This document shows positions 14,372-38,838 of a DNA stretch of 64,000 nt, piece after piece. Source of the stretch: Escherichia phage IME08; the sequence record NC_014260.1, one strand, 5' to 3'. Each line of letters starts with the position of its first letter. The stretch's first letter is position 1. Below the pieces are notes generated by a model. The model was not told where the DNA came from. It searched no databases and was given only the letters and a program-made list of their open reading frames with translations. Both the position numbers and the translations under genes were made by a program.

Positions 14372-14400
14372 AACCTTCCTAAAAAGTAAACCCTTAAAAC

Positions 14401-14426
14401 CAAAAAAAGGAACCCGAAGGTTCCTT
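14401..14426 (-). terminator. GGAACC-UUCG-GGUUCC tetraloop hairpin + U7
   Basis: minus strand GGAACCttcgGGTTCCttttttt immediately after the soc stop. Confidence 0.7.
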
Positions 14427-14430
14427 ATAA

Positions 14431-14664
14431 TTAAACTACTGGGGTCGGCGTGAACATTGCTGCGTTCTTAGTTCGCCAATCGGCTGCATCAGTCACTACA
14501 GTAGTATAGGCTGCAACGGCCGAAGGGAAAGTCTGATAATGAGAGTCTGCAATACGGTGCTCGTTTGAATAAATCTCAAACGGGACCGAAACCTCAGTAC
14601 CTTTAACTTCTTTACCTTCACCAGCTGGATGTGTAAAGGTTTTGATATTAACGAAACCACCCAT
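14431..14664 (-). CDS. soc: small outer capsid protein
   Basis: 77 aa; VNIKTF...HYQTFPS...AAY match recalled T4 Soc. Confidence 0.9.
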   Translation of the reverse strand: MGGFVNIKTFTHPAGEGKEVKGTEVSVPFEIYSNEHRIADSHYQTFPSAVAAYTTVVTDAADWRTKNAAMFTPTPVV

Positions 14665-14695
14665 AATTAACTCCTTTGTTGTTTAATTACAGGTG

Positions 14696-14703
14696 TATTT
14701 ATA
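14696..14703 (-). promoter_or_regulatory. late promoter TATAAATA upstream of soc
   Basis: minus strand TATAAATAcacctgtaattaaacaacaaaggagttaattATG. Confidence 0.7.
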
Positions 14704-14705
14704 AC

Positions 14706-15227
14706 TTAATAACCTCGGTCTTGACGAGCAAAGTTCTCGGCATTTTTCAGATAATACAACTTAAAGATTTCTTCAGCAGTCAGTCCAAGGCCTTGGAACA
14801 TATTCAGAACGAAATGGAGAATATCAATCATTTCAAATTTAATTTCGAGCTGGTCTTCAGGAGAGAGTTCGTCAATACGACGGTTACGGAATTCACCATG
14901 TTGAGCTTTCCAAGGCTTCCACACACTAGATGCGGCTTTCTCGCCATTGCTCATGCCACCAAGAGAAGTCAACAGTTCACGGAATTCGTCATCAATATAA
15001 TCTTTCTGGTTGCGAAGCCAATCGACAACTTGACCTGCAGTAGCCAGTTCATCGGGGTTAGAGTTAAATTCAGATTTTTCAGTAGCCAAACGGACCTGTA
15101 ATGATTTCTGCATATCAAGCATAACCTGCAGAGGGTCTTTATCTTCATGAATCAGAGCATTAAAATAAGCTTCCTCAGCTTTATCAACACCAGAAATCAA
15201 ACCACTACATTCGTTAAAAAATGCCAT
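14706..15227 (-). CDS. 56: dCTP pyrophosphatase (MazG-like dCTPase)
   Basis: 173 aa; position after soc; all-alpha MazG-like sequence with the EExxE signature pattern; size matches T4 gp56. Confidence 0.85.
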   Translation of the reverse strand: MAFFNECSGLISGVDKAEEAYFNALIHEDKDPLQVMLDMQKSLQVRLATEKSEFNSNPDELATAGQVVDWLRNQKDYIDDEFRELLTSLGGMSNGEKAASSVWKPWKAQHGEFRNRRIDELSPEDQLEIKFEMIDILHFVLNMFQGLGLTAEEIFKLYYLKNAENFARQDRGY

Positions 15228-15231
15228 TATA

Positions 15232-15888
15232 TTATTTCCTATTAAAGTTTTCTATCATTCGTCGATAACAAATATCAGGATATCCATTATCAACAGCTAT
15301 TTTATTAAATTTGGTGCGTTTAGGTTTATTATTGTAAACCCATAATTCATAAAGCATATCGTAACTATTCCATATTTCTCCGCGCCTAGGATTTGGCAAA
15401 CCATATCGAGGGGAATCTTTACCACTAAATCTTCCTTTTCTAGCTTTACTCATATTGGCCTTAGCTTCATCAGATATAATTTTATCTTTATGAGCCAGGC
15501 GCATTTTGGCTTTAGTTTCTTCAGGAGTTTTCATCCCTCTAATCCAGGAAGGTTTACCAAACATCGGGTTATTTTTTCCTGAAAATGCTTTAGCGTTATT
15601 TTCTCTTAACGTGGCTATAGTTCTACTAGTTAATTTAACTCCTTTATTATATCTCATTAAATTAACAGCATAATGTAGACCTTTTACTTCGGGATATATT
15701 TTTGTTAAAAGCCTATGAGCTACAAAGTGTTCTCTTGGCAATAAAGCAACTAAATTGTTTTTATCATCAGAACCATTCATACATCTAGGTATAACATGGT
15801 GTTCTTCCGTATAATATGATAAAGACCGCTTAGAACCTCTTAATTTTCCTTTAGATATTAATTCCTGGTATATTTTTTCGTAATTCAT
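15232..15888 (-). CDS. HNH homing endonuclease with NUMOD-like repeats
   Basis: 218 aa; HNH motif EEHHVIPRCMNGSDDKNNLVALLPREHFVAHR; repeated NPMFGK/KDSPRYG modules; AT-rich ORF inserted between gene 56 and gene 61. Confidence 0.8.
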   Translation of the reverse strand: MNYEKIYQELISKGKLRGSKRSLSYYTEEHHVIPRCMNGSDDKNNLVALLPREHFVAHRLLTKIYPEVKGLHYAVNLMRYNKGVKLTSRTIATLRENNAKAFSGKNNPMFGKPSWIRGMKTPEETKAKMRLAHKDKIISDEAKANMSKARKGRFSGKDSPRYGLPNPRRGEIWNSYDMLYELWVYNNKPKRTKFNKIAVDNGYPDICYRRMIENFNRK

Positions 15889-15921
15889 GGGATAATTGTA
15901 TCATTAATTTGTAAAGCAAGT

Positions 15922-15929
15922 TATAAATA
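15922..15929 (+). promoter_or_regulatory. late-promoter-like TATAAATA on the plus strand
   Basis: TATAAATA 10 nt upstream of AGGAGG SD and the ATG at 15951. Confidence 0.45.
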
Positions 15930-15950
15930 TTAATTTAACAGGAGGATAAT

Positions 15951-16151
15951 ATGGGCAGTATTTTTTACCAAATCTGGAAATTGGCCGAAAAGAAAGACAA
16001 GAAAATGATGTTAGGTTTTCTTGCGCTAGACGTATTCCTTTGGAATCTTTTAGTAGTCCCTGTAGCCGCTAGCCAAGGGATAATTTTACCAGCGGTTACA
16101 ATGGAACACGTATTAAGCATAATTGGATTCTTTAGCGGAATTCCTGCCTAA
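15951..16151 (+). CDS. small hydrophobic protein, only plus-strand gene candidate
   Basis: 66 aa; consensus AGGAGG SD with 5-nt spacing; two hydrophobic segments; convergent with primase gene. Confidence 0.45.
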   Translation: MGSIFYQIWKLAEKKDKKMMLGFLALDVFLWNLLVVPVAASQGIILPAVTMEHVLSIIGFFSGIPA

Positions 16152-17176
16152 ATTTTAGAATATTTCGAAAGTCTCATTTTAGCCATTAGACCTTGGGCTA
16201 TATTAGCTTTCATATATGCCAGTACATCATTTATATCAGCTTTATCTTTCATAATCATATCATTTATATCTTTAGAAGGCCATGGAGCCTTGTCCCAGAA
16301 TAGAACCCTTTCGCCAGCATCAACTAATCGTTGCATACGCTTAATTGTGTCAGGATGGCGGGGTTCATTGTCCATTACCCAAGCTCGAGTTTCTTTACAC
16401 GGAACCATAGCCAAGTCCAATGACCCACCAGTAATTGCTATTGCATTAGGTACGAATAATGAATCAATAGGACCTTCCATTACCCACACCAACTGACGTT
16501 CGTCAACTGTATCCATTCCATATATTTTTGTAGCTTGGTCATGAGCTTTTATTGTAATATATTTTTGTGGAGCATCTTTACGTAAGGCTCGACCCTGAAA
16601 ACTTTCAATTTGTTTATTCTTATTGAAAATTGGAATAACCAAACGCGGTTCAGGCATTTCTTTAGAATAGGTCCCTGGATTCACAGAGTTAACTAATGCG
16701 GGCCATTCTTTAGTAAACCACAGCCGATTCCATTTGTTTTCAGGAATGCAACGTAGTGTCACATATTTGATAATAGGATGGTCCTTTGGCATTCTATCTA
16801 ATCGTTCACAGAAATTAAGCTTTTCGATAACAGGCATCTTAGCTTTAATTTTTTCAGATATCTCCACCTTAGGTGCAGCTTGTCTCCCGAACGATTGCTC
16901 TTTATGTTTCTCAAGAATATATTCACGATATAAATCAGGCTCATATTCGTATAGATACTTCTTAATTCCTGCTGAATAATCACAGTTAAAACAGTGCAGC
17001 ATTACAGAGCCGTCATTGGCCGGATAGGCCCAAAAACGCGCTTTGTTCTCATCTTTTAGGGAGTCGCCACATACACGACAACGGCAATTTAATTTAAAAT
17101 CACTACCAGTTACTTGTCTGAATTTAGGTTGGTAATTCAAGGCACGTACAGCAAATTCTCTATCGACATATGACAT
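16148..17176 (-). CDS. 61: DNA primase
   Basis: 342 aa; N-terminal zinc ribbon CRCRVC...CFNC; same length as T4 gp61. Confidence 0.9.
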   Translation of the reverse strand: MSYVDREFAVRALNYQPKFRQVTGSDFKLNCRCRVCGDSLKDENKARFWAYPANDGSVMLHCFNCDYSAGIKKYLYEYEPDLYREYILEKHKEQSFGRQAAPKVEISEKIKAKMPVIEKLNFCERLDRMPKDHPIIKYVTLRCIPENKWNRLWFTKEWPALVNSVNPGTYSKEMPEPRLVIPIFNKNKQIESFQGRALRKDAPQKYITIKAHDQATKIYGMDTVDERQLVWVMEGPIDSLFVPNAIAITGGSLDLAMVPCKETRAWVMDNEPRHPDTIKRMQRLVDAGERVLFWDKAPWPSKDINDMIMKDKADINDVLAYMKANIAQGLMAKMRLSKYSKI

Positions 17177-17214
17177 TATTTTTCCTTGGGCTCTAAATTA
17201 ATAGAGCCATTATA

Positions 17215-17376
17215 TCATTCGTTTTCGGATTTTTCTTTACGCTTTTTAGATGGGATTTGTTCAGGCCCTTTGTTGACGACCGCGCCTGAGGTAGTTCCGG
17301 AGGCAATAGCAGTAGGATTACCGCCTGCATCGCCTGCGACCATATCTTCGTTCATAACTTCTTTAAAAGATTTCAT
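17215..17376 (-). CDS. small Gly/Ala-rich basic-tailed protein
   Basis: 53 aa hand-translated ORF (MKSFKEVMNEDMVAGDAGGNPTAIASG...KKRKEKSENE); AGGAG SD; TATAAATA late-type motif at 17390-17397. Confidence 0.4.
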   Translation of the reverse strand: MKSFKEVMNEDMVAGDAGGNPTAIASGTTSGAVVNKGPEQIPSKKRKEKSENE

Positions 17377-17392
17377 AGGCTCCTGGCCTTAT

Positions 17393-17584
17393 TTATATTA
17401 CGAAAATAGCTTTATCACCATTTGCATCAGTGACTTCATAGGTATCTTCGTGGTAAAGTGGAATAATCCAAGTCGCACCATCACCAGCAATAATATGGAT
17501 AGCTTCTTGGTCTTTTGATACGATTTCATATTCTTCGAATAATTCGAATACAGAAATCTTAGAGCCCGTACACATTGCACTCAT
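17393..17584 (-). CDS. hypothetical acidic small protein
   Basis: 63 aa ORF; preferred over the overlapping alternative frame 17398..17580. Confidence 0.35.
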   Translation of the reverse strand: MSAMCTGSKISVFELFEEYEIVSKDQEAIHIIAGDGATWIIPLYHEDTYEVTDANGDKAIFVI

Positions 17585-35977: not shown

Positions 35978-36215
35978 CCTTGATGCATGATTCAGCCATA
36001 TGAATTAATGTTTCTGGAGTATCATCTACCATTACATTAAAGCTAAATTCCACAGCCCAATCAGTGAAAACATAAACCTTTACGACATCTTCGCTTTCAC
36101 CGTCAGTACAGCCTTCGAACCAGAATTTAATGATTGAAGGATTGCCATCGTCGTCAATAACCATACAATCATGTTTAAAGCATAATCCTGATTTTTTGAA
36201 TTCATCTAAAGTCAT
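35952..36215 (-). CDS. hypothetical protein
   Basis: 87 aa ORF. Confidence 0.45.
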   Translation of the reverse strand: MTLDEFKKSGLCFKHDCMVIDDDGNPSIIKFWFEGCTDGESEDVVKVYVFTDWAVEFSFNVMVDDTPETLIHMAESCIKDAYNDENV

Positions 36216-37234
36216 CGTGTAACCTCATTATAAAGTTGTGCAGCCATAGTCTTAAGGGCTTTAACATCGTCTTCAGTGTGGCCATCAGGAAGGGCGTCGA
36301 TATAATCATACATCATATCCAAGAGGGACTTAACTTCATCTTCCTCTTCAGAATCATCGATATCAACACTGTTATCTACCTTAGACACGATACGTAAAGA
36401 ATGGACGACCTTTTCAAGCTCTGATTCGAACTTAGTAAGGCCATCATCGATTTTATCGACTATAACACGAACTGCAATATTTGTAAAATCTTTGTAATCG
36501 ATAGTCGCGTTAGGATAATGAATCTTACGGTGCCAACAGGTTTCATTGATGACGAAATCCATTGTATGGGTTTCTGTATCGAAAATCCAGAAGCCGCGAG
36601 GGTCGTTTTCATCACCTGCAGTCAGGGTCCATGGCGTACCAATATACTTAACGTTTGCTGCATCAGAAATAGTGTGGAAGTGGCCTGACCAAACTTGCTT
36701 ATACCTCTTAAGGAAATCAGGTTCTAAACCATGAGATTTCATTCCTTTATAGAAATAGAAACCATTTAATTCCCAGTGACCTATACAGAAATCTGCTGTA
36801 GTATTTTTGATATGGTCCATGATATCAGTAGTGTTTTCTTCACACATCCATGGAATCAAATCAATTTCGGTACCATCAAAGTTAACCGTAGTAGGTTTCT
36901 CAATAACCTTGATATGGTCGTATTTACCCAGAACTTCAGAAGCAGCGTTCGGAGTCAAGGTATTTTTGTAGTGTGCATCATGGTTGCCGACGACAGTATA
37001 CATGGTAATGCCGTTGGTTTTAAGCAAATCTGAAATATGTCTAGCAAATTCCATACACTTATGAGTAATTGCTTTACGAACATCAAAAATATCACCATAC
37101 TGAATCCAGACAGTGATACCATTTGCTTTAGAATAATTGATGGCATCTTTGATGCCTGCCAATTGGATGTTTTGCACCCAAGGGTCGTCGTTCTTCACTC
37201 CAAGGTGCCAGTCACCCGTATTAAGAATTTTCAT
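36212..37234 (-). CDS. 47: recombination endonuclease subunit (Mre11/SbcD-like phosphoesterase)
   Basis: start set at MKILNTGDWHLG (phosphoesterase motif I); GNHD motif present. Confidence 0.9.
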   Translation of the reverse strand: MKILNTGDWHLGVKNDDPWVQNIQLAGIKDAINYSKANGITVWIQYGDIFDVRKAITHKCMEFARHISDLLKTNGITMYTVVGNHDAHYKNTLTPNAASEVLGKYDHIKVIEKPTTVNFDGTEIDLIPWMCEENTTDIMDHIKNTTADFCIGHWELNGFYFYKGMKSHGLEPDFLKRYKQVWSGHFHTISDAANVKYIGTPWTLTAGDENDPRGFWIFDTETHTMDFVINETCWHRKIHYPNATIDYKDFTNIAVRVIVDKIDDGLTKFESELEKVVHSLRIVSKVDNSVDIDDSEEEDEVKSLLDMMYDYIDALPDGHTEDDVKALKTMAAQLYNEVTR

Positions 37235-37838
37235 TACGTATTCGTTCCCACATTTTGGAGGCTGCTTTAGAAGCAGAGCCAGGAAGTTTACCTTTGACCC
37301 ACCCATCAGGAATATTAGATGGGTTAATCAGTTTATGTTCTATTCCGTTATTATACCACTTCCTGCCCTTATTATGACTAGATGCTTTATAATTAGGTGA
37401 ACGACCTTCTACATATCCTTCGGGGACTGTAGGTGCAAAGGTTTGTTCTAATGTAACAGGATTATAGGAATGAATATACCCTTTAGCATTATGAGAGCCG
37501 TAAAGAGGGTGTTGCTCTTTAGGTAGCGAAAGCCCAAAGAATCCTTTAGGAGCTGCGACAGCCCTATTAAAGAATAGAGGATTTTGGGCTGCATCGGTTC
37601 TTAACTGGTACATTCTTTCAGCTTCTAAAGCCTCTTCTCTTGTAGGGTGTTCACTTACAATACATGAGTCAAATAATTCTGGATGCTCTAAAAGCTCATT
37701 TTTATAGATTTCTTTATATGCTTTAGAAAGGACACTCCCGTGATATCCTTTTAAATGCTTCTCTAAAGTGGTAGACCCTATATAAAACGGTGGAAGCTTA
37801 GTCCCGGAATATATTGTCAGGTATGTGATGTATTTCAT
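37221..37838 (-). CDS. GIY-YIG homing endonuclease (Seg-like)
   Basis: 205 aa; N-terminal YLTIYSG...FYIGST GIY-YIG motif; C-terminal NUMOD-like GRKWYNNG. Confidence 0.7.
   Translation of the reverse strand: MKYITYLTIYSGTKLPPFYIGSTTLEKHLKGYHGSVLSKAYKEIYKNELLEHPELFDSCIVSEHPTREEALEAERMYQLRTDAAQNPLFFNRAVAAPKGFFGLSLPKEQHPLYGSHNAKGYIHSYNPVTLEQTFAPTVPEGYVEGRSPNYKASSHNKGRKWYNNGIEHKLINPSNIPDGWVKGKLPGSASKAASKMWERIRNENS
37221..37838 (-). mobile_element. seg-like homing endonuclease gene where T4 carries alpha-gt
   Basis: located between gene 47 and gene 55. Confidence 0.55.
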
Positions 37839-38311: not shown

Positions 38312-38606
38312 TGACGATTTCCCAAATTTGTTTGCGGGTAGATTCCCACATCAATTGAACAAGTTCATCAGTAACAGGTTGACGGTAAATACCACGTAAT
38401 TTAATTAAAGCGTACTTATATGCTTCAAAGTTGTTTTCAAGTACAGCGCCTTGGGCATGGAGATTTAAACGACGGATTTCACGAGCATTCTTCTTAAGAA
38501 TCTTAGCCGCTTGAGAATTAGCTTCTTTAATATTGTGCTCTTCTAAACGTTGCTGGGCTTCTTCAATTTGCTCATCAGTCAATTGAGAAATGTCATGGCT
38601 TTGCAT
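38295..38606 (-). CDS. hypothetical protein
   Basis: 103 aa ORF. Confidence 0.4.
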   Translation of the reverse strand: MQSHDISQLTDEQIEEAQQRLEEHNIKEANSQAAKILKKNAREIRRLNLHAQGAVLENNFEAYKYALIKLRGIYRQPVTDELVQLMWESTRKQIWEIVNGSSK

Positions 38607-38607
38607 A

Positions 38608-38838
38608 TTAATCCTTTGGAGTCAATTCAATAGTGAAGTAGAAATTAGCGTTCTCAACATGATAACGATAATCTACGTTATTGTCAGGAGAAGTGAATTC
38701 AATATTCCTGACGTTAAGTGGGTCAATATCAATAGGAAGGCCTTTAACATCCCGTAATATCAATTTAATAAAATAAGGGAGTGCTTCGAAGTCTTCCATT
38801 CCATCTAAAAGTGGAGTGATATTAATCTGATGTTCCAT
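38608..38838 (-). CDS. hypothetical protein
   Basis: internal Met start chosen to limit overlap with gene 55. Confidence 0.4.

Follow-up and report, generated by a model that had tools for sequence, protein, structure and literature searches.

The question raised by the segment between gene 56 and the primase gene 61 of Escherichia phage IME08 (NC_014260.1) is whether its two genes, an AT-rich endonuclease gene and a small hydrophobic ORF on the opposite strand, were acquired together as one mobile cassette, as stated in the original prediction, or have separate histories. The window, i.e. the whole stretch of 64,000 nucleotides that was analysed, represents a JS98-like Dhakavirus with the gene order soc, gene 56, a 218-aa HNH/NUMOD3 gene, a 66-aa plus-strand ORF and primase gene 61 (Table 1). 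We favour, with a probability of about 85%, two independent neighbours: a mobile HNH gene of the Mob family and a resident, conserved gene for a small membrane protein. Both genes are ordinary for this phage group, a Mob-family member beside an ordinary late gene, and the value of the distinction lies mostly in annotation, where a selfish insert is told apart from a resident gene.

Table 1. Features predicted at the gene 56/gene 61 locus (window coordinates)
Feature	Position	Strand	Basis or remark
Gene 56 (dCTPase/dUTPase)	14706-15227	-	Resident, directly downstream of the insert; annotated gp56 in JS98, VR5 and others
HNH-linked substitution cluster over codons 3-11 of gene 56 (first ~30 nt), with Ser8 (AGT) and Gly9 among them	15195-15221	-	Comparison with C6
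Free-standing Mob-type HNH/NUMOD3 homing endonuclease gene, 218 aa	15232-15888	-	Pfam, PHROG, presence/absence polymorphism
Best NUMOD3 DNA-binding motif, aa 100-112	15553-15591	-	Pfam; one further stretch matches as well
HNH (beta-beta-alpha-metal) nuclease motif, aa 22-59, EEHHVIPR...NNLVALLPREHFVAH	15712-15825	-	Pfam HNH aa 22-49; McrA/IscB alignment
MotA-type middle-promoter motif TTGCTTTA-N11-TACAAT	15895-15919	-	Resident gene-56 promoter; predicted +1 is the A of the HNH ATG
T4 late-promoter consensus box TATAAATA for the small ORF	15922-15929	+	21 nt before the ATG; perfect match
AGGAGG Shine-Dalgarno	15940-15945	+	5 nt before the ATG; conserved in relatives
Gene for a small membrane protein of 66 aa (PHROG 2024), homologous to RB69ORF029w and to a T4 ORF that lies between dam and gene 61 and is unannotated	15951-16151	+	
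Primase gene 61	16148-17176	-	Convergent with the 66-aa ORF; ORF ends overlap by 4 nt

The description of the locus itself was borne out. The HNH/NUMOD gene between gene 56 and primase has the predicted position, domains and AT-rich composition (GC content 0.285-0.37 over positions 15100-15999 vs 0.393 for the whole window), and the hydrophobic 66-aa ORF is present on the opposite strand with its perfect AGGAGG and late-promoter-like box. Minus-strand ORFs cover 92% of the window, and every other confident gene was likewise confirmed to lie on the minus strand: in a crude ORF partition (plus-strand ORFs of 50 aa or more, with little overlap by minus-strand ORFs, an ATG start and a Shine-Dalgarno), the 66-aa ORF was the sole candidate and no second one was found in the 64-kb window. 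The seven plus-strand leftovers comprise six ORFs with TTG starts and one with an ATG start (38590-38757), none of the seven with a ribosome-binding site. A search of the whole window against Rfam at gathering thresholds gave zero matches, and a scan of the window for sigma-70 promoters and terminators performed at chance level and was discarded. The tail-to-tail layout of a 66-aa-type ORF and primase is also found in T4, Marfa, Kosakonia phage 305, SSE1 and RB69.

The 218-aa protein matches PHROG 655 ('homing endonuclease') over its full length (E=2e-54) and PHROG 12434 ('HNH endonuclease'; E=2.8e-11). Two stretches match NUMOD3 in Pfam (28.6 bits vs a curated cut-off of 20.4), and the Pfam HNH match lies under the gathering score (18.4 vs 21.4 bits; E=0.0025); the catalytic motif H30-H31...N44-N45...H54...H58, read from the translation, is intact, and a PDB sequence search aligned the protein to McrA and IscB, as weak matches to the HNH cores only. 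RB6 MobD is 35% identical over 99% of the length, and the endonucleases beside nrdA (the MobE position) are approximately 40% identical. Judged by these matches, the gene is a member of the Mob family with a putative HNH domain fused to NUMOD-type modules and predicted nuclease activity. As in T4 MobA-E (PMC2988022), the N-terminal HNH domain, here a predicted one, is followed by a NUMOD-type DNA-binding region, and the gene is free-standing between conserved genes, promoter-less, without a clear ribosome-binding site and patchy among relatives. Unlike T4 MobA-E, it is located upstream of gene 56; the T4 mob sites are 60.1/39, alpha-gt/alpha-gt.2, nrdG/nrdD, nrdC.11/mobD.1 and nrdB/nrdA (PMC2988022 Table 1), and since none of these matches, the label 'mobE' in the record of phage VR5 is to be read as a family label only. 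Orthology to MobE was rejected, as MobE is inserted between nrdA and nrdB, and the neighbours here are gene 56 on one side and the small ORF/gene 61 on the other; the corrected label would be Mob-family paralogue, with a separate insertion site in front of gene 56. Nothing was found in the literature on an HNH gene at gene 56/61.

Comparison of the junction in related phages separated the two genes. The inserted segment (approximately 15238-15890) places about 650 bp in the stead of about 21-24 bp of the gene-56 leader, with clean junctions against empty-site relatives. The whole block was found at 80% coverage or more in only 8 of 681 matching records; in JS98, C6, WG01, QL01 and others, about 76% of the block is covered and exactly the HNH segment is missing, and most Dhakaviruses, including JS98, C6 and dhabil, have empty sites. 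In Mosigvirus SSE1, Tequatrovirus PYps11T and Jiaodavirus 15882-3-1, the position immediately upstream of gene 56 is taken by an HNH gene of about 78% identity; the HNH-56 linkage is common to at least 53 records, and the gene is distributed patchily at this one site across four genera with about 77-100% amino-acid identity. These observations support, on comparative grounds, an acquired, polymorphic mobile insertion, of which only the HNH part of the block would be mobile. The proposal that the pair is an acquired mobile cassette thus stands for the HNH gene, for which empty-site alleles are common, and falls for the 66-aa ORF, which is present at the same place, about 97% identical and with the same Shine-Dalgarno and upstream box, in the HNH-less JS98, C6 and dhabil; by the refuting condition set in the original prediction (the block at the same site in all relatives, without empty-site alleles), the small ORF fails and the HNH gene passes.

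Joint entry of the HNH gene and the 66-aa ORF, with the ORF as cargo (e.g. an immunity or accessory factor of the endonuclease), would account for two adjacent, divergent genes in a relatively AT-rich stretch, and for the spacer allele with perfect TATAAATA that is common to four HNH-positive phages (window, E33, ABTNLS3 and UGJNEcP3). It is nevertheless extremely unlikely and already refuted by the empty-site genomes: T4, T6, RB69 and several other genera have the ORF without an adjoining HNH gene, HNH-less Bp7 has this same spacer allele and the HNH-positive VR5 and ESCO10 have the other one, and in HNH-positive phages of other genera the small ORF is of the type proper to the genus. Independent acquisition of those ORFs is contradicted by synteny and by the codon-level divergence pattern.

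The small ORF belongs to a widespread family. It matches PHROG 2024 (E=4.8e-28; residues 1-64 of the ORF, 65-position profile), as do the T4-, RB69- and Kanagawavirus-type members and all subtypes tested. Family members are convergent with the 3' end of primase in each of nine genera examined (Dhaka-, Gapriver-, Marfa-, Kanagawa-, Mosuguk-, Gelderland-, Mosig-, Jiaoda- and Tequatrovirus), with T4, T2, T6 and RB69 among the carriers, and among the matches listed, primase is annotated at or beside most of the small-ORF hits. Two subtypes match 120 and 716 phage records, respectively, in largely distinct sets, i.e. about 800 T-even-type genomes; these include T4, in which the copy is intact (NC_000866, 17738-17938, plus strand) and missing from the reference annotation. 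T4 is also the best phage genetic system available for a direct test of the gene. The ORF shares with RB69ORF029w, RB32 ORF030w and RB55_p033 the convergence with primase, a single predicted transmembrane helix and the layout of box and Shine-Dalgarno; the window copy differs from that group in subtype, being of the 'MGSIFYQIWK' type, and identity between this and the T4/RB69 subtype is about 35-45%. Both subtypes occur in tandem in VR7. No family was found in Pfam, and in NCBIfam only a meaningless SspI match of 12.5 bits; a word-indexed protein search with the small ORF gave close relatives only, with uninformative names. A profile search of 1.84 billion representatives yielded seven clusters of short, phage-type proteins, except for one likely spurious hit of 1433 aa, and none of these was a homologue outside the phage family from which a function might be borrowed; in the literature, nothing was found on the 66-aa ORF. 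By its distribution, the ORF is an old, apparently vertically inherited gene of the enterobacterial T-even-type phages and not part of the HNH insert.

For expression of the small ORF, the genome offers a late-type box whose count in the window is at chance level (five TATAAATA found vs 6.8 expected); 21 of 22 homologous loci across genera have an xATAAATA box ahead of the Shine-Dalgarno, at a short distance that does not vary, and it is because of this position and conservation, and not its count, that the box is regarded as non-accidental. The -13 position is A, G or C in JS98, VR5, T4, PM2 and others; the late consensus and its tolerated -13 variants have been described (PMC2988020, PMC1524935), with A at -13 as the commonest natural variant in T4 (PMC2988020). 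For RB69ORF029w, Nolan et al. did not predict a late promoter. Most likely, to judge from the promoter motif, the small ORF is made late from a gp55-type promoter. The unusual regulation that had been anticipated for the pair was not upheld, as late transcripts of T4 run in either direction and several of its sites are transcribed from both strands (PMC2988020).

No plus-strand terminator was detected downstream of the small ORF, in a scan that performed at chance level, and given this and the 4-nt overlap of the ORF ends, a late plus-strand transcript would be antisense to gene 61. The same two features, together with the transcription of both T4 strands, could be taken to mean that the ORF is incidental and that the late promoter makes antisense RNA into the 3' end of gene 61 in order to shut primase off late. 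We regard this as very improbable, since the ORF has the marks of a coding sequence: pN is far below pS (0.088 vs 0.785 for window vs Bp7; 0.05 vs 0.47 for Kos305 vs PEi20), variable sites are distributed over the codon positions as 16/8/49, with a bias to the third, the alignment is gap-free with invariant W-N, P, G and P across 35-97% identity, the strong Shine-Dalgarno is conserved, and Bp7 keeps the ORF intact though another gene separates it from primase. The small ORF is, on this substitution pattern, evidently coding and under strong purifying selection, and an antisense effect could exist in addition to the protein.

The predicted protein has its Kyte-Doolittle hydropathy peak at residues 20-38, with a charge of +3 to +7 on the N-terminal side vs -2 to 0 on the C-terminal side; the AlphaFold2 model (mean pLDDT 72) contains helices at residues 2-11, 14-41 and 51-62, and a transmembrane segment at 21-41 has been published for RB69ORF029w (PMC1524935 Additional File 2). 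From these predictions we infer a single-pass, N-in topology: members of 63-74 aa would reside in the inner membrane, with a basic, cytoplasmic N-terminus, a transmembrane helix at about 19-41 and, outside, a conserved G-x-x-[LVI]-P-x-[VM] turn followed by a short helix. A Foldseek search of viral structures with the AlphaFold2 model retrieved family members only, one of them labelled 'holin'. A holin, an antiholin or another lysis-timing factor would suit the small size, the late-type promoter, the single transmembrane helix and the basic cytoplasmic N-terminus, and the homologue in Escherichia phage OE5505 carries the UniProt label 'Holin'; this label, however, is an annotation without reference, and the charged C-terminal tail typical of small holins is absent, the C-terminus FFSGIPA being uncharged. 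T-even-type phages, moreover, already encode a T-type holin system, and the assignment is doubtful. Our best guess, held with low confidence, is an envelope modulator late in infection (lysis timing or superinfection). A wider proposal appears just as doubtful, namely that this is an overlooked, near-universal late gene of the enterobacterial T-even phages, that its membrane protein is active at the envelope late in infection, in lysis timing, lysis inhibition or superinfection, and that its late transcript, left unterminated, in addition dampens primase mRNA through convergent antisense transcription.

The HNH gene, on the other strand, appears to depend on resident signals. The sequence TTGCTTTA-N11-TACAAT-N6-ATG reads directly into its start, and MotA motifs of this class are more frequent in the window than by chance (12 vs an expected 3.1; 12 reached in none of 100 shuffles). 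The homologous spacer of RB69 holds an in-silico middle promoter, Pm:16038 (PMC1524935 Additional File 4), and the same promoter spacer sequence is present in HNH-less Bp7. The HNH ATG has no Shine-Dalgarno and sits at the predicted +1, and the last codons of the gene, AAT AGG AAA TAA, supply the Shine-Dalgarno of gene 56. T4 free-standing endonucleases typically are promoter-less cassettes without translation-initiation regions (PMC2988022); here, a promoter-less cassette of about 650 bp would have replaced the gene-56 leader exactly between the middle promoter and the gene-56 ribosome-binding site. From this position it follows that the HNH gene and gene 56 would be co-transcribed, and the absent Shine-Dalgarno and the ATG at the predicted +1 imply weak or leaderless translation of the HNH gene; the leaderless start we infer only from the standard spacing of -10 to +1.

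In a mixed infection, the HNH enzyme would nick or cut the HNH-less allele in or beside the gene-56 5' end or leader, and recombinational repair from the HNH-positive genome would copy the HNH gene together with flanking markers (intronless homing). More speculatively, the enzyme may nick at the spot that is annotated as oriA in T4 (nt 23 of gene 56), where origin-proximal forks would convert the nick into a double-strand break for homing. The 5' end of gene 56 carries a candidate trace of such events: empty-site C6 and the window differ at 12 of the first 30 nt of the gene and at none of 180 nt at positions 90-270. This cluster is, from its location, a candidate co-conversion tract and/or a cleavage-resistant target variant. 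Codon 8 is AGT in 10 of 10 HNH-positive genomes (four genera); AGT without HNH occurs in at least 12 genomes (Bp7, MX01, PM2, the IMG/VR loci L027, L029 and L033, and others), so that the association of AGT with HNH may reflect linkage or phylogeny and not target immunity. Codon-8 AGT as a unique marker of HNH-positive genomes was rejected after two IMG/VR pattern scans, with many AGT alleles lacking HNH; the weaker statement that holds is that TCN alleles never carry HNH (0 of 23 genomes with a TCN allele at codon 8).

Alternatively, the HNH gene might no longer be active in homing and persist as a fixed, non-mobile remnant, or it might have been domesticated as a nuclease for some other role. 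Its start lacks a recognisable ribosome-binding site, many T4 mob genes are without demonstrated activity (PMC2988022 Table 1), and several relatives are annotated with shorter ORFs (E33, ABTNLS3 and ESCO10), for which reason some HNH copies may be decaying or mis-called. We consider this unlikely, as the window copy is a full-length ORF with intact catalytic residues and NUMOD3 modules, the gene is patchy at one site in four genera, and the adjacent substitution cluster would be the trace left by ongoing or recent homing.

A homing endonuclease gene beside gene 56 has a counterpart in T4, in which SegF targets gene 56 (PMC2988022); SegF is a GIY-YIG enzyme for which intronless homing at gene 56 is attributed to Belle, Landthaler and Shub 2002, as cited in PMC2988022 and PMC2993671. 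Each of the two endonuclease genes is free-standing and adjoins gene 56, and for each, a localised co-conversion of markers is expected. The two differ in nuclease type, HNH in the window vs GIY-YIG in SegF, and in position, the HNH gene being upstream of gene 56 whereas segF lies between soc and gene 56. In AnYang, VR7 and T4, segF is found on this other side; taking different phages together, gene 56 has a different homing endonuclease on either side.

By megablast of nt 14400-17300, the window belongs with the JS98-like T4-type phages of the genus Dhakavirus, the closest records being those of vB_EcoM-E33 (97.8%), ABTNLS3 (97.0%) and LQ5 (96.2%). From soc to gene 61.1, one gene lies on the plus strand and the rest on the minus strand. 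When the 64 kb were crudely partitioned into ORFs, 118 non-overlapping minus-strand ORFs made up 92% of the sequence, and among plus-strand ORFs of 50 aa or more a credible start was found only for the 66-aa ORF (termed small ORF; the 218-aa ORF is termed HNH gene).

Coordinates of genes and sequence features in the window
Feature	Position	Strand
soc	14431-14664	-
TATAAATA box, directly upstream of soc	14696-14703	-
Gene 56 (dCTPase)	14706-15227	-
HNH-linked substitution cluster	15195-15221	
218-aa ORF (HNH gene)	15232-15888	-
Putative MotA box	15912-15919	-
TATAAATA box, upstream of small ORF	15922-15929	+
AGGAGG, five bases 5' of small-ORF ATG	15940-15945	+
66-aa ORF (small ORF)	15951-16151	+
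Primase gene 61	16148-17176	-
Gene 61.1 (homologue of 53 aa)	17215-17376	-
TATAAATA box, directly upstream of gene 61.1	17390-17397	-
364-aa ORF	36212-37306	
205-aa ORF	37221-37838	-

The 218-aa protein matches Pfam NUMOD3 over the curated cut-off, Pfam HNH slightly under the cut-off, and PHROG 655 'homing endonuclease' (E=2e-54); its residues H30-H31, N44-N45, H54 and H58 align to the HNH cores of McrA and IscB. The GC content of the HNH segment is 0.285-0.37 vs 0.393 for the window. Thus, the original prediction had described both genes accurately (NUMOD3/HNH matches, low GC, AGGAGG, TATAAATA, and the lone credible plus-strand ORF). With 35% identity to MobD over the full length and about 40% to nrdA-adjacent proteins, the HNH protein belongs to the Mob family. 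Near-identical GenBank records already annotate its gene as 'homing endonuclease' or 'mobE'; an identification as MobE was rejected, since the MobE site is nrdA/nrdB. Overall identity between the HNH genes of VR5 and this window is about 90%, with a far more divergent short patch in the NUMOD3 region (columns ~430-500 of alignment A1; window ~15530-15600), which suggests mosaic exchange of DNA-binding modules.

The two genes had been proposed to form one acquired mobile cassette with unusual regulation. The HNH gene does behave as a mobile insertion, as the whole block is covered by only 8 of 681 matching records (megablast) and many empty sites exist, whereas the small ORF is no part of a cassette: it is retained in C6, dhabil, MX01, Bp7 and AnYang, all without the HNH gene, and the 'empty' 292-bp spacer of JS98 holds the same 66-aa ORF (unannotated there), Shine-Dalgarno sequence and box. 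Furthermore, SSE1, PYps11T and 15882-3-1 keep their own genus-type small ORF beside the HNH gene, and hence the small ORF does not travel with it. The observation is correct and its interpretation partly wrong; judged from sequence, the locus is a typical homing-endonuclease insertion adjoining a conserved, putatively late membrane-protein gene.

The Dhakavirus-type small ORF was found at >=95% identity in about 43 records (tblastn), so the eight whole-block records give an HNH occupancy of roughly one in five in the genus. HNH genes of about 78% identity, in the order primase, small ORF, HNH, gene 56, are present in Mosigvirus SSE1, Tequatrovirus PYps11T and Jiaodavirus 15882-3-1, and the linkage of HNH and gene 56 was detected in at least 53 records (query: small ORF, HNH gene and gene 56). 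In Shigella phage SSE1 (extracted locus L015, 2001-3173, own numbering), the HNH ORF lacks a stop codon and continues in frame into gene 56 (...MIENFIRKENNMPHFNEC...), annotated as a single 390-aa 'homing endonuclease', and AV111 looks similar; this fusion is either real or a sequencing or annotation artefact.

The empty site, in gene-56 orientation, reads TATAAT-TATC-TAACTTACTAATGAATTGAAA-AGGAAAAA-ATATA-ATG. In genomes with the HNH gene, about 21-24 nt past TATC are exchanged for CC-ATG...(657-nt ORF)...AAT-AGG-AAA-TAA-TATA-ATG; the insert therefore separates the resident promoter from the gene-56 ribosome-binding site, which the last codons of the insert recreate. Upstream of the HNH ORF the sequence reads TTGCTTTA-N11-TACAAT-N6-ATG, and TTGCTTTA-N11-TACAAT is a putative MotA-box middle promoter by the consensus of T4 middle promoters. 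Motifs of this class are more frequent in the window than expected (12 vs 3.1; no shuffle reached 12), and a middle promoter, Pm:16038, was published in silico for the homologous RB69 spacer (PMC1524935, Additional File 4). At standard spacing, transcription would begin with the A of the HNH start codon ATG, which has no Shine-Dalgarno sequence upstream. Such a start fits the pattern of T4 free-standing endonuclease genes, generally cassettes that lack a promoter and have poor translation signals (PMC2988022). The spacer occurs as two alleles independent of HNH presence: that of the window also in Bp7 (no HNH gene), that of JS98 also in VR5 and ESCO10 (both with it). The MotA box and the plus-strand late box are 2 bp apart and would constitute a very compact divergent promoter pair, untouched by the HNH insertion.

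Among empty-site phages, C6 is the closest; its gene 56 shows no differences from that of the window over nt 90-270 and 12/30 in the first 30 nt, adjoining the insert. Ser8 of gene 56 is encoded by AGT in 10/10 HNH-bearing genomes examined (four genera), and codon 8 of empty-site genomes is mostly TCN or an Ala codon; the HNH gene was present in 0/23 TCN-allele genomes examined (5 GenBank, 18 IMG/VR), and at least 12 genomes carry the AGT allele without it. These findings would fit a TCN-type target open to cleavage, with AGT-type alleles resistant to it, and could equally be a relic of co-conversion or linkage; alternatively, the target may be the leader segment lost through the insertion. 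Gene 56 is a known target of the GIY-YIG endonuclease SegF, encoded on its other side in T4 (PMC2988022); segF is found there in VR7, AnYang and T4. The T4 record annotates the replication origin oriA, with the gene-56 transcript as primer, at gene-56 nt 23 (16763; L024 2764), the same spot as the HNH-linked substitution cluster, which may be coincidence or relevant to the conversion of a nick into a double-strand break.

The 56-61 junction is a hot spot of insertions. In Bp7, an endonuclease gene different from the window's lies between small ORF and primase (L012 1428-2183); MX01 carries dam and an extra ORF (L013 1185-2524); and in Marfa (L005 371-1472), Q7622 and Kosakonia phage 305 (L009 523-1457), gene 56 and the small ORF are separated by other ORFs or another endonuclease. 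An extra ~45-aa ORF between soc and gene 56, absent in the window, is present in E33, dhabil and Klebsiella phage 15882-3-1 (L017 607-747, L014 600-731, L023 2674-2811). Compared with the window, E33 and ABTNLS3 have about 140 nt more in the block, which was joined there from two BLAST pieces.

The small ORF is, by its coding constraint, evidently a real gene. An alignment of 22 homologues is essentially gap-free, with W31, N32, P37, G43 and P47 invariant; variable sites at codon positions 1/2/3 number 16/8/49; and synonymous change is saturated with replacement low (window vs Bp7, pS 0.785, pN 0.088; Kos305 vs PEi20, pS 0.47, pN 0.05). A hydropathy peak at residues 20-38 and the charge bias (N-terminal side +3 to +7, C-terminal side -2 to 0) predict an N-in single-pass protein; AlphaFold2 gives helices at 2-11, 14-41 and 51-62 (mean pLDDT 72), and Nolan et al. 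placed a predicted TM segment at 21-41 in the annotated RB69 copy, RB69ORF029w (PMC1524935, Additional File 2).

Of 22 small-ORF loci, 21 have an xATAAATA box ahead of the Shine-Dalgarno sequence: TATAAATA (perfect) in the window, E33, ABTNLS3, UGJNEcP3, Bp7, MX01, Marfa, Q7622 and Kosakonia phage 305; AATAAATA in JS98, VR5, dhabil, C6, SSE1, T6 and PYps11T, and also in RB69 (outside the 22); GATAAATA in T4 and PM2; and CATAAATA in the VR7 subtype-B copy, PEi20 and Klebsiella phage 15882-3-1. The count of TATAAATA in the window is at chance level (5 vs 6.8 expected), and the box is informative only through position and conservation. Of the T4 late promoters listed, 32/50 are perfect, with A at -13 as the commonest variant, and late transcripts occur in either polarity (PMC2988020); A or T at -13 is tolerated in other T4-like phages too (PMC1524935). 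A plus-strand late gene inside the early cluster is therefore normal, and the proposed 'unusual regulation' was not borne out. Late expression of the small ORF is likely, judging by its promoter-like box; what speaks against it is that Nolan et al. list no late promoter ahead of RB69ORF029w (PMC1524935). The terminator scan found no plus-strand terminator downstream of the small ORF, so a late transcript would run antisense into gene 61, which may have an effect; this cannot be the sole function, because the protein itself is under constraint. Of the other four TATAAATA boxes in the window, one on the minus strand precedes soc, a known late gene, and another on that strand precedes gene 61.1, which suggests a late promoter for 61.1 within the early cluster.

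The window subtype of the small ORF was found in 120 phage records and its sister subtype in 716 (tblastn). Every subtype tested matched PHROG 2024, of which the small ORF is an ordinary member, and a profile search matched only seven clusters among 1.84 billion representatives; the family is thus confined to the T4-like phage group, with no function to borrow. In all 24 records examined (Dhaka-, Gapriver-, Marfa-, Kanagawa-, Mosuguk-, Gelderland-, Mosig-, Jiaoda- and Tequatrovirus) it adjoins the 3' end of primase, except in Bp7, where the other endonuclease gene intervenes. Near-identical GenBank records already annotate it as 'hypothetical protein'. T4 has an intact 66-aa copy (NC_000866.4, 17738-17938, plus strand; L024 3739-3939) after GATAAATA and AGGAGG in the 309-bp gap between dam and gene 61, unannotated in the reference record and termed a hypothetical protein in other T4 records. 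VR7 carries both subtypes in tandem on the plus strand (L004 1295-1492, 1501-1695), the second copy being Dhakavirus-type, unannotated, and frameshifted at its 3' end, which runs on into primase. The Gapriverviruses SP18, TH54, RZ and PSD2001 match residues 28-66 only, which suggests decaying second copies.

Elsewhere in the window, the 205-aa ORF and the end of the 364-aa ORF share 86 nt. The 205-aa ORF is probably a homing endonuclease gene of the Seg type, with its YIGST-type N-terminus and weak GIY-YIG match (E=0.0078, under cut-off).
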